64,000 nucleotides of DNA. Origin: Candidatus Heimdallarchaeota archaeon. GTDB taxonomy: Archaea > Asgardarchaeota > Heimdallarchaeia > Heimdallarchaeales > Heimdallarchaeaceae. Shown here piece after piece: positions 17,851-19,821 of this stretch. The number at the start of each line of letters is the position of its first letter. The first letter of the stretch is position 1. A model generated the notes under the pieces. The model saw nothing but the letters and a program-made list of their open reading frames with translations. It was not told where the DNA came from and did not search any database. The DNA is taken from contig JAEOSZ010000055.1 of assembly GCA_016840095.1 (NCBI GenBank), forward strand, positions 1 to 64,000, in the 5' to 3' direction. Both the position numbers and the translations under genes were made by a program.

Positions 17851-19821
17851 ATGCTTATGGTAAGAGCAAGATTTGTAAAGCCGATTCTAGTTTTACTCTT
17901 TACTACTTTGTTTCTCTTAAGTGTAGTAAATACTAGTATCAATGTTAATTCAAAGGAACCTATTGCTAATCTTGTAATTAAAACCAGTGGAGGAGGAGTA
18001 AGACCTAATTACTGTCTTTACATAGCTCAATATTTACGAGAGGTTGGAATTGAAGTAGAAATTAAAACTGAAGAGTGGGTTGTCTTTCTAGGACAAATAC
18101 TATTTACGCATAATTATGATTTAGCTGTAGTAGGTTGGTCACTCAATCTTTTCTCTCCTGATATGAGAGGGGTTTACACTGAAACCAGTCCTGAGAATAT
18201 TTGTGGCATTACTAACGATATTCCTTACATCAATCAGAGTGAAGAGATGTTACAAGAAGGAATTACTATTCTTGAACTAACTGAAAGGCAACAGCTTTAC
18301 TTTGACTGGCAAAAATTGATAATGGATCGAATTCTTCCTATTCTACCTCTTTATACTACAATGAATTATTGGGCTCTGTGGTCAAATACTAAGGGTTATG
18401 ATTCCAGATGGGGATTATACGATAATTTACCTTATATGAGCTGGGAAGATTACCATTTTGGTCAAAAATCTTTAGATGAACTTAATCTTGATGAAGGATA
18501 TTGGTTATCATTAAATCCTCTTAATGCTCCTGATGCAGCAAGTTATAGATTTATTAGTTTGATAATGGACAAATTAATAATTTGGAGTCCGGATAATCAA
18601 CCTCTAAGATCAGGACCTATCTACGATTGGGAGAAGTTTGATGATTTTCATTATAAATTCTTTTTACGAGAAAATATGTTTTGGAATCCTTCTTATAATG
18701 TTTCACTAAGAAATGAAAATTCTCCTGAACTTTCATCTATACCTTCACCAGAACTAATGTTTGGATTAAAAAATGATGAATTTAGTGATGGAACTAATCA
18801 AAATATCAAAGCTAAAGACGCAGTTTTTAGTATATTAGCTCTAGCAAATGAAGAAGTAAGTGATTTTTCCTATTATTTCAATTGGATTTCAGATTTATAT
18901 GTGGATGAGGAGGATGAGTATGCTTTTCATCTAATTATTGATGGTAATCCGGAAACTCCTGAGAAAGAAGTTTATGTTGACTTTTGGTATGATTTATCTT
19001 TAATCAGTTTAATTCCTGAATTCTTTCTGAATTCTACAGACATAACTATTACTCAGACTTCTGGGGGAGTAGAATGTAGTGGTTTTTATCCAGGGATTCT
19101 TTCAACCCCTCAATGGAAAGCCTTTGATCATACTCCATTTGGTAGTGGAATGTATCAGCTTGATTACTATTTCAAAAATGTATTAACTGTCATGACGAGA
19201 AGTCCATATTGGTTTGGTGTAGGTAGATTAAACAACCAAGAAAATATGGTGCCTTTTGTGGAAACACTCAACCTTAGAGTTATTCCTGATTCTACTTCAA
19301 GCATTACAGAATTCAGAGCAGGAAAACTTGATCTTGTTTGGCTCACAGGTTTTACATCTGAAAGAAGGCAGATGGAAATTGATGACAGAATGACTGTTTA
19401 TAGTACTCTTTCAAGTGGCTACACGTTTATGATTTTCAATCTTGCTAGACCCTTTATTGGCGGAACAAATAATTATGAATGGTTGACATCAGAAGGAAAA
19501 GAAGTATATACTAAAGGAGTAGCAATTAGGAAAGCAATTAGTTATTCAATTGATAGAGAAGAAATGAATGATGTGCTACATAATGGAGAGTACATCATAT
19601 GTCACAGTCCAATTGTTCCAGGATTGACTTATTATTATTATAACGATGTCATTAAATATAACAAAGATTTGAAAAAAGCTGAGGAATGGCTTATAGCAGC
19701 AGGATATGACATAGAGGTAGATGGAACTACATTTGAATTATTCACCACAATAATAGGTATATCATCAATTCTAGTTATTCAAGGATATATACAAAGAAGA
19801 AAGAAGATTACTAAGAGCTGA
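17851..19821 (+). CDS. ABC-type family 5 (OppA/DppA-like) substrate-binding protein, circularly permuted, C-terminally anchored
   Basis: All SBP5 motifs are present (SLNP, F.LR...W, AKDAVF, PFGSGMY, AIRKAISYSIDR, KAEEWLIAAGY), but the VGIEVEI/YDLA/ERQQLY block comes first. Signal peptide and C-terminal TM plus RRKK. Confidence 0.88.
   Translation: MLMVRARFVKPILVLLFTTLFLLSVVNTSINVNSKEPIANLVIKTSGGGVRPNYCLYIAQYLREVGIEVEIKTEEWVVFLGQILFTHNYDLAVVGWSLNLFSPDMRGVYTETSPENICGITNDIPYINQSEEMLQEGITILELTERQQLYFDWQKLIMDRILPILPLYTTMNYWALWSNTKGYDSRWGLYDNLPYMSWEDYHFGQKSLDELNLDEGYWLSLNPLNAPDAASYRFISLIMDKLIIWSPDNQPLRSGPIYDWEKFDDFHYKFFLRENMFWNPSYNVSLRNENSPELSSIPSPELMFGLKNDEFSDGTNQNIKAKDAVFSILALANEEVSDFSYYFNWISDLYVDEEDEYAFHLIIDGNPETPEKEVYVDFWYDLSLISLIPEFFLNSTDITITQTSGGVECSGFYPGILSTPQWKAFDHTPFGSGMYQLDYYFKNVLTVMTRSPYWFGVGRLNNQENMVPFVETLNLRVIPDSTSSITEFRAGKLDLVWLTGFTSERRQMEIDDRMTVYSTLSSGYTFMIFNLARPFIGGTNNYEWLTSEGKEVYTKGVAIRKAISYSIDREEMNDVLHNGEYIICHSPIVPGLTYYYYNDVIKYNKDLKKAEEWLIAAGYDIEVDGTTFELFTTIIGISSILVIQGYIQRRKKITKS

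Follow-up and report, generated by a model that had tools for sequence, protein, structure and literature searches.

Natural circular permutations of proteins are usually single ancient events. One has been described in a membrane-tethered ABC substrate-binding protein (SBP), the 'Cluster Bc' glucose-binding protein TpMglB-2 (Tp0684), which retains ligand binding and closure and for which tethering was proposed as the cause (PMC4990184). SBPs of cluster C (family 5, Pfam SBP_bac_5), such as DppA (1DPE, 1DPP, 8Z1Z), AppA (1XOC), H. pylori DppA (6OFQ), OppA and NikA/NikZ, have the canonical chain order of domains I-II-I-III-I. The peptide carboxyl and amino groups are bound in DppA by R383 and D436 (precursor numbering; PMC12136057). 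An archaeal family-5 SBP with a signal peptide and a C-terminal anchor, DSAG12_03090 of P. syntrophicum, is encoded in an Opp-type operon (PMC11284389). Our literature searches on permuted SBPs and on Heimdall ABC transporters, which covered few subscription journals, did not yield any account of family-5 SBPs with a permuted chain, and no solved structure with the permuted order was found among the structural and sequence matches.

Here, we describe a gene in the window (the whole stretch of 64,000 nucleotides of Candidatus Heimdallarchaeota DNA that was analysed) whose product is a confirmed circular permutant of a cluster C SBP, a surprising case of protein evolution. As in canonical cluster C proteins, its blocks jointly cover the chain, PF00496 scores above the cut-off, an Arg is aligned to AppA R373, Trp76 is present and relatives are linked to oppBCDF. 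Unlike these proteins, it has an order permuted at about DppA 341-345 with termini and anchor on domain III, carries three insertions, lacks the amine-binding Asp of DppA, is unlinked to a permease and exists in 14 permuted copies. With TpMglB-2 it shares the natural circular permutation of a membrane-tethered ABC SBP; however, TpMglB-2 belongs to cluster B, binds a sugar, has a lipoprotein anchor and one described topology, whereas the Asgard family belongs to cluster C, has a C-terminal transmembrane (TM) helix and comprises three break points with repeated switches. Predicted signal peptide, C-terminal TM helix and basic tail are as in anchored archaeal family-5 SBPs of Opp-type operons, namely the copy on contig C35 of the same genome and proteins of families f2 and f3 (e.g., L090), in which, unlike here, the block order is canonical and the anchor follows domain I.

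A circularly permuted cluster C protein

The open reading frame begins with ATG, contains no N and has a GC content of 0.329 (genome, 0.332); its homologues start at the position equivalent to 17851, which makes the in-frame GTG at 17761 improbable as a start codon (Table 1). The source assembly is a metagenome-assembled genome (MAG) of 165 contigs, 89% complete and 7.8% contaminated. The nearest named proteins derive from Candidatus Heimdallarchaeaceae or Heimdallarchaeota (43-55% identity); the protein lacks a close orthologue (best identity 55%), and its terminal branch in a quick tree is longer than those of its nearest relatives. Genes flanking the SBP gene are found together in other genomes without it. 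On one side, a GH4 glycosidase gene (16410-17729, minus strand) is divergent from the SBP gene; it is patchily distributed (7 of 30 other genomes of the family) and its neighbours are shuffled among genomes. A sugar ligand, hinted at by this neighbour, was dropped, because at 0/7 other GH4 loci was any SBP present in the flanking sequence retrieved (up to 1.5 kb). Matches in a scan for sigma-70 promoters were at chance level, with a model that is unsuited to an archaeon.

Table 1 Features of the permuted SBP gene and a second permuted copy (positions in the window; aa numbering of the full-length product)
Feature	Position	Strand	Remark
Circularly permuted (type I break) family-5/cluster C SBP, 656 aa	17851..19821	+	Sequence and predicted structure
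Basic and hydrophobic N-terminal segment, aa 1-34, probable Sec signal peptide (cleavage inferred)	17851..17952	+	Hydropathy 2.2-2.3
Front-moved block, aa 36-199, with the latter half of domain III and the strand back to domain I (DppA 341-507)	17956..18447	+	
Arg51	18001..18003	+	Aligned to AppA Arg373; about DppA R355 by structural-alignment offset (R383 in precursor)
New junction of ancestral C-terminus to ancestral N-terminus, aa 200-208	18448..18474	+	
Block aa 209-624 (DppA 1-345): domains I, II and first half of III, with family-specific insertions	18475..19722	+	
C-terminal TM helix (about aa 628-647) and RRKK tail; linker of few residues	19732..19806	+	
Second permuted paralogue, 752 aa, 46-47% identical, about 100 extra residues before the TM helix	35513..37771	-	

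All 12 motifs quoted in the original prediction are located in the reading frame and in the order claimed there. The front block holds LVIKT (aa 41), ERQQLY (aa 145) and TKGY (aa 180); the chain then restarts at SLNP (aa 220, nt 18508) and runs through FFLRENMFW (aa 270), AKDAVF (aa 321) and TPFGSGMY (aa 428) to AIRKAISYSIDR (aa 558), KKAEEWLIAAGY (aa 608) and RRKK (aa 649).

Sequence matches, domain order and structural alignments to DppA agree on the proposed circular permutation. Residues 363-503 of B. subtilis AppA match aa 42-184 (domain E-value 2.9e-6) and AppA 212-350 match aa 468-624, and the match to H. pylori DppA has the same block swap. The PF00496 profile scores 131.8 bits (curated cut-off 32.4) and, as anticipated, gives two matches in swapped order, with profile positions 291-354 (nt 17971-18162) preceding positions 28-290 (nt 18778-19743). 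The AlphaFold model, with 86 homologues as input, has a pLDDT of 92.2 and a pTM of 0.85. For structural comparison the two blocks were superposed separately on DppA (1DPE), each from a predicted model: aa 209-624 align to residues 1-345 (Z 21.8, rmsd 3.2 Å, 326 aligned), and aa 36-199, from a separate fold of aa 36-207, align to residues 341-507 (Z 9.9, rmsd 3.0 Å, 157 aligned). The two blocks tile the whole canonical chain, and the permutation is therefore complete; since the blocks are swapped relative to the canonical domain order, the protein is a permuted variant of cluster C, with the three-domain OppA/DppA fold as modelled. No collinear full-length alignment emerged, and the front block superposes as it should in a permutant. 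More than 100 homologues, including copies on closed chromosomes, are collinear with the protein over 75-99% of its length.

The break falls inside domain III, which we take to be DppA residues 261-478, in agreement with the original prediction. At the position of the cut, canonical relatives have a variable acidic loop behind the 'AG(Y/F)' helix. That the two chain ends and the C-terminal anchor have shifted to the domain III lobe was likewise borne out; the one canonical copy in the genome has its anchor behind the native C-terminus. At the junction, H202 and Q205 are invariant and G204 almost invariant among homologues. Hydropathy indicates a signal-like N-terminal segment in 79/86 homologues and a C-terminal TM helix in 85/86, and the protein is predicted to be exported and kept outside the membrane.

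The Arg aligned to AppA R373 is kept in 66/86 homologues and Trp76 in 83/86. The position of the GW-x-x-D Asp is occupied by Asn99 and mostly by Gly in the family, so that of the DppA Arg/Asp pair the Arg is present and the Asp absent. Pocket loops vary among family members; the family loop is Gly-rich, and that of the focal protein deviates from the consensus (W96, no Gly run). The NCBIfam DppA score is 12.9 bits against a cut-off of 1005, and the protein is not a DppA proper. Our best guess for the ligand, judged from sequence, is a peptide or another carboxylate solute, a peptide being uncertain because the amine-binding Asp of DppA is not conserved.

Paralogues, break points and origins in Asgard archaea

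What looked like a single oddity in the original prediction is the majority form in the Heimdallarchaeaceae. The source genome has 15 family-5 loci: 14 copies are permuted at the same site, and the canonical one heads a full oppABCDF operon on contig C35. Eight of the permuted copies, among them the focal gene and the second copy in the window, belong to clade A and six to clade B; some carry extra domains. We refer to the Heimdallarchaeaceae group of the focal genome, to which the closed H. aukensis (G026) and H. endolithica (G074) genomes also belong, as f1, and to a family of the same order, probably Kariarchaeaceae, as f2. Clade A (42 rows, SH-aLRT 96-97) unites the focal protein with permuted SBPs of f6 and f2 and is present in 28/28 f1 and 11/11 f6 genomes searched; the f2 proteins are sister to those of f1 and f6 (support 96-97). 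Frameshifted or fragmentary permuted SBP genes in the closed H. aukensis genome (L103:1084-1674 and 6336-8126) suggest turnover of paralogues.

A scan of other Asgard genomes with PF00496 revealed two further break points in family-5 SBPs, giving three by profile position: type I at about 289 (the focal protein), type II at about 142 and type III at about 213. Type II occurs in f5, f11, f17, f18 and f22 (e.g., L266, L267, L274, L311, L316, L367) and type III in f5 and f22 (e.g., L335, L345, L313, L359); some type II and III genes lie in arrays of five and some head Opp clusters. A type II domain also forms the N-terminus of very large proteins (L275, L276, L280, L286; reading frames of 1742-2591 aa), in which the sequence after the SBP (DTG.D motif) looks, by eye, like a subtilisin-type protease.

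We reordered 242 proteins to the canonical register (160 type I, 59 canonical, 19 type II, 4 type III) and calculated trees on 132 and 55 non-redundant rows, from quick searches with SH-aLRT support only; AU tests were run on the 55 rows. Type I requires eight changes on the tree, and the AU test rejects a single type I clade, i.e., one origin (p-AU 7.6e-92). In two cases a type I protein has a canonical protein as its sister (both with support 99-100): L289 to L250, an unanchored protein of Bacillus type, and L283 to L268. Canonical f2/f3 proteins are nested in the permuted clade B, and placing them outside is rejected (p-AU 6e-5, for a grouping chosen after viewing the tree), which implies either that the canonical order was restored or that several additional gains took place in parallel. 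The trees argue that the rewiring arose repeatedly in Asgard archaea.

Tandem SBP arrays are common, and in-frame tandem fusions contain a complete internal unit in another register, be it type I (L102, P0242), type III (L331, P0272, P0280) or canonical (L295). If permutation proceeds by duplication, for which we infer the order of events, such fusions would be expected as intermediates. The L102 fusion spans positions 3709-7383, and type II units occur together with canonical ones in P0254 (4308 aa). Five giant multi-SBP proteins that matched a junction-spanning profile (P0248, P0262, P0308, P0334, P0367) were rejected as permutants; they are canonical tandem repeats.

This profile, searched against 1.84 billion representatives, found 96 complete type I proteins among the 147 top matches examined, 79 of the 96 with a C-terminal TM helix, and the few permuted proteins with a named taxon are from Asgard archaea. 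Sequence L219, titled Bathyarchaeia, was discarded as a case of spread outside Asgard archaea; its contigs and loci coincide with those of G292, a genome of the class Heimdallarchaeia, and its title is a probable mislabel.

Permuted proteins and Opp permeases

The original prediction had further raised the possibility that the permutation alters, or even stops, docking on a permease. In the source genome, no permease gene lies within 3.5 kb of any of the 14 permuted copies. Contig C143 carries an oppB-oppC-x-oppD-oppF locus without an SBP, C145 and C104 carry single paralogues of oppB and oppC, and an oppD/F pair lies at the edge of a contig. Near a permease we found only one of the 84 f1 permuted copies that were fetched, many with short flanks, and the f1 copies must therefore act in trans if they transport at all.

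Gene neighbourhoods in other families argue against a loss of docking. In f2, a permuted SBP, full-length at six loci and partial at one, lies directly upstream of oppB(-oppC), and f2 operons have two or three permuted SBPs around one oppBC. In parallel with the SBP tree, OppBs of f1 and f6 that lack an adjoining SBP group with the SBP-adjoining OppBs of f2 (split support 98, unrooted tree). Another OppB lineage corresponds to clade B of the SBPs, and its members have a type I, type III or canonical SBP, or none, as neighbour. Complete oppABCDF operons with a type I SBP as first gene are present in f11, f17 and f19, and type I SBPs lie within or beside such clusters in f5 and f18. Within f1, nearly every genome searched encodes the orphan OppB, at 76-96% identity and usually as two copies; G142 has a clade-A permuted SBP behind oppB-oppC-x on the same strand. 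The complete genomes of H. aukensis and H. endolithica encode two Opp ATPase pairs and OppB/C genes, and no intact canonical-order PF00496 gene was found in them. This genomic evidence suggests that permuted SBPs work with permeases. A complex prediction for the focal SBP (aa 36-624) and the C143 OppB, with OppC left out, scored 0.00 and gives no answer either way.

Several further features of these loci were observed. The OppB of C143 (C143:13242-18983, L055) has a C-x5-C motif in its periplasmic loop that is conserved in f1 and absent in f6 and f2, and gene x of this locus encodes 262 aa with no Pfam match. The oppB paralogue on C145 is solitary (C145:28193-30995, L058; also L142, L144, L152, L155, L156) and is conserved next to a gene for a 550-570-aa membrane protein, likewise with no Pfam match, in several f1 genomes, the two closed ones among them. 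The second Opp system of f1 (L348:9098-11710, L349, L350, L351) has an OppB of 870-890 aa with a long N-terminal extension and an operon without an SBP. In f2 operons, a secreted-looking conserved protein of 510-550 aa is encoded between the canonical SBP and oppB (L090:7057-8673, L096:3672-5201, L099:1202-2800, L106:4685-6340); the L090 copy has no Pfam match, and L099 ends before any oppB.

Proposed mechanism, rival explanations and significance

The fold, the permutation, the anchor, the paralogue family and the lack of a neighbouring permease are established computationally. We consider it likely that the protein is an exported, C-terminally tethered flytrap SBP that feeds an unlinked OppBCDF of the C143 type, which it shares with clade-A paralogues that have different pockets. 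Briefly, Sec would export the protein and the C-terminal helix would hold it at the surface, where the three-domain Venus-flytrap fold, with its permuted chain path, might close on a small ligand. The likeliest ligand is a peptide or a different solute with a carboxylate group, which Arg51 would hold; with the amine-binding Asp missing, the pocket would be unlike that of DppA. The ligand would be delivered in trans to OppBC-DF on C143, or to the paralogous subunits on C145 and C104, a translocator that the protein would have in common with the seven other clade-A paralogues. The permutation itself may have started from a tandem duplication, followed by in-frame fusion and by trimming that left the signal peptide and the anchor in place at the two ends. 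Adjacent native termini and a cut in an insertion-tolerant surface loop would make such a permutation easy, and it is probably near neutral for transport and tolerated rather than required.

Compatible with this transport mechanism is the proposal that the chain was permuted as an adaptation to its C-terminal tether, the anchor being so positioned that a very short linker suffices to reach the membrane when the protein is docked. It could account for the recurrence of the same type I break in separate clades, the rejection of one origin and the position of L289 beside the unanchored L250; a C-terminal TM helix is present in 70/77 type I copies, and a similar idea was put forward for TpMglB-2 (PMC4990184). 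The median linker is 9 aa in type I and 16 aa in canonical archaeal copies, faintly indicating a shorter tether in type I, but the ranges overlap widely (canonical 6-48 aa, two long ones aside). Moreover, no single geometry is required, as there are two other break points and canonical anchored copies nested in clade B, and if a cut can be accommodated in few loops, the same loop would be expected to recur as well. We thus regard adaptation to tethering as possible but doubtful. The wider combination, in which tethering selected the repeated register switching (three breaks, several origins, at least one return) and the Heimdallarchaeaceae copies form a permease-unlinked repertoire of surface receptors, some of them non-transport, seems rather unlikely to us.

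The expanded, dispersed permuted copies might instead no longer serve transport and function at the surface as ligand sinks, adhesins or receptors, with only one or two conserved paralogues feeding the permeases. The ratio of 14 permuted copies to about three Opp permease sets, none of them adjacent, speaks for such a role, as do tandem arrays without permeases, variable pocket loops and the extra domains of some copies. Yet there is no cytoplasmic signalling domain on a tail of about eight residues, and the two or three permuted SBPs around one oppBC in f2 operons match what is ordinary in Opp systems, namely several SBPs sharing one translocator, which renders a general departure from transport improbable. 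The focal protein could be a drifting paralogue, given its lack of a close orthologue, its longer branch and its deviating pocket loop. That it is a decaying duplicate without function, for which one might also cite neighbours that occur together elsewhere without the SBP and frameshifted family members (L103), is less probable still in view of the intact frame with signal and anchor, the family-invariant residues and the confident model. An assembly or alignment artefact, conceivable for a fragmented and partly contaminated MAG, is practically excluded by the same order in more than 100 independent proteins, also on closed chromosomes, and by two blocks that tile DppA end to end.

Under the favoured transport reading, the physiology of the focal gene is probably ordinary nutrient uptake. 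The wider significance lies in one well-studied fold that exists in four registers within one phylum, together with fused duplicates and an apparent reversion. Permutation by duplication, either neutral or selected by the tether, is testable on natural pairs (L268/L283, L250/L289 and canonical f2 proteins versus f1 clade B). Standard annotation hides the permutation, as Pfam reports just SBP_bac_5. For the foraging of Heimdallarchaeia, close relatives of eukaryotes, the finding means that many dispersed SBPs appear to share two or three translocators.
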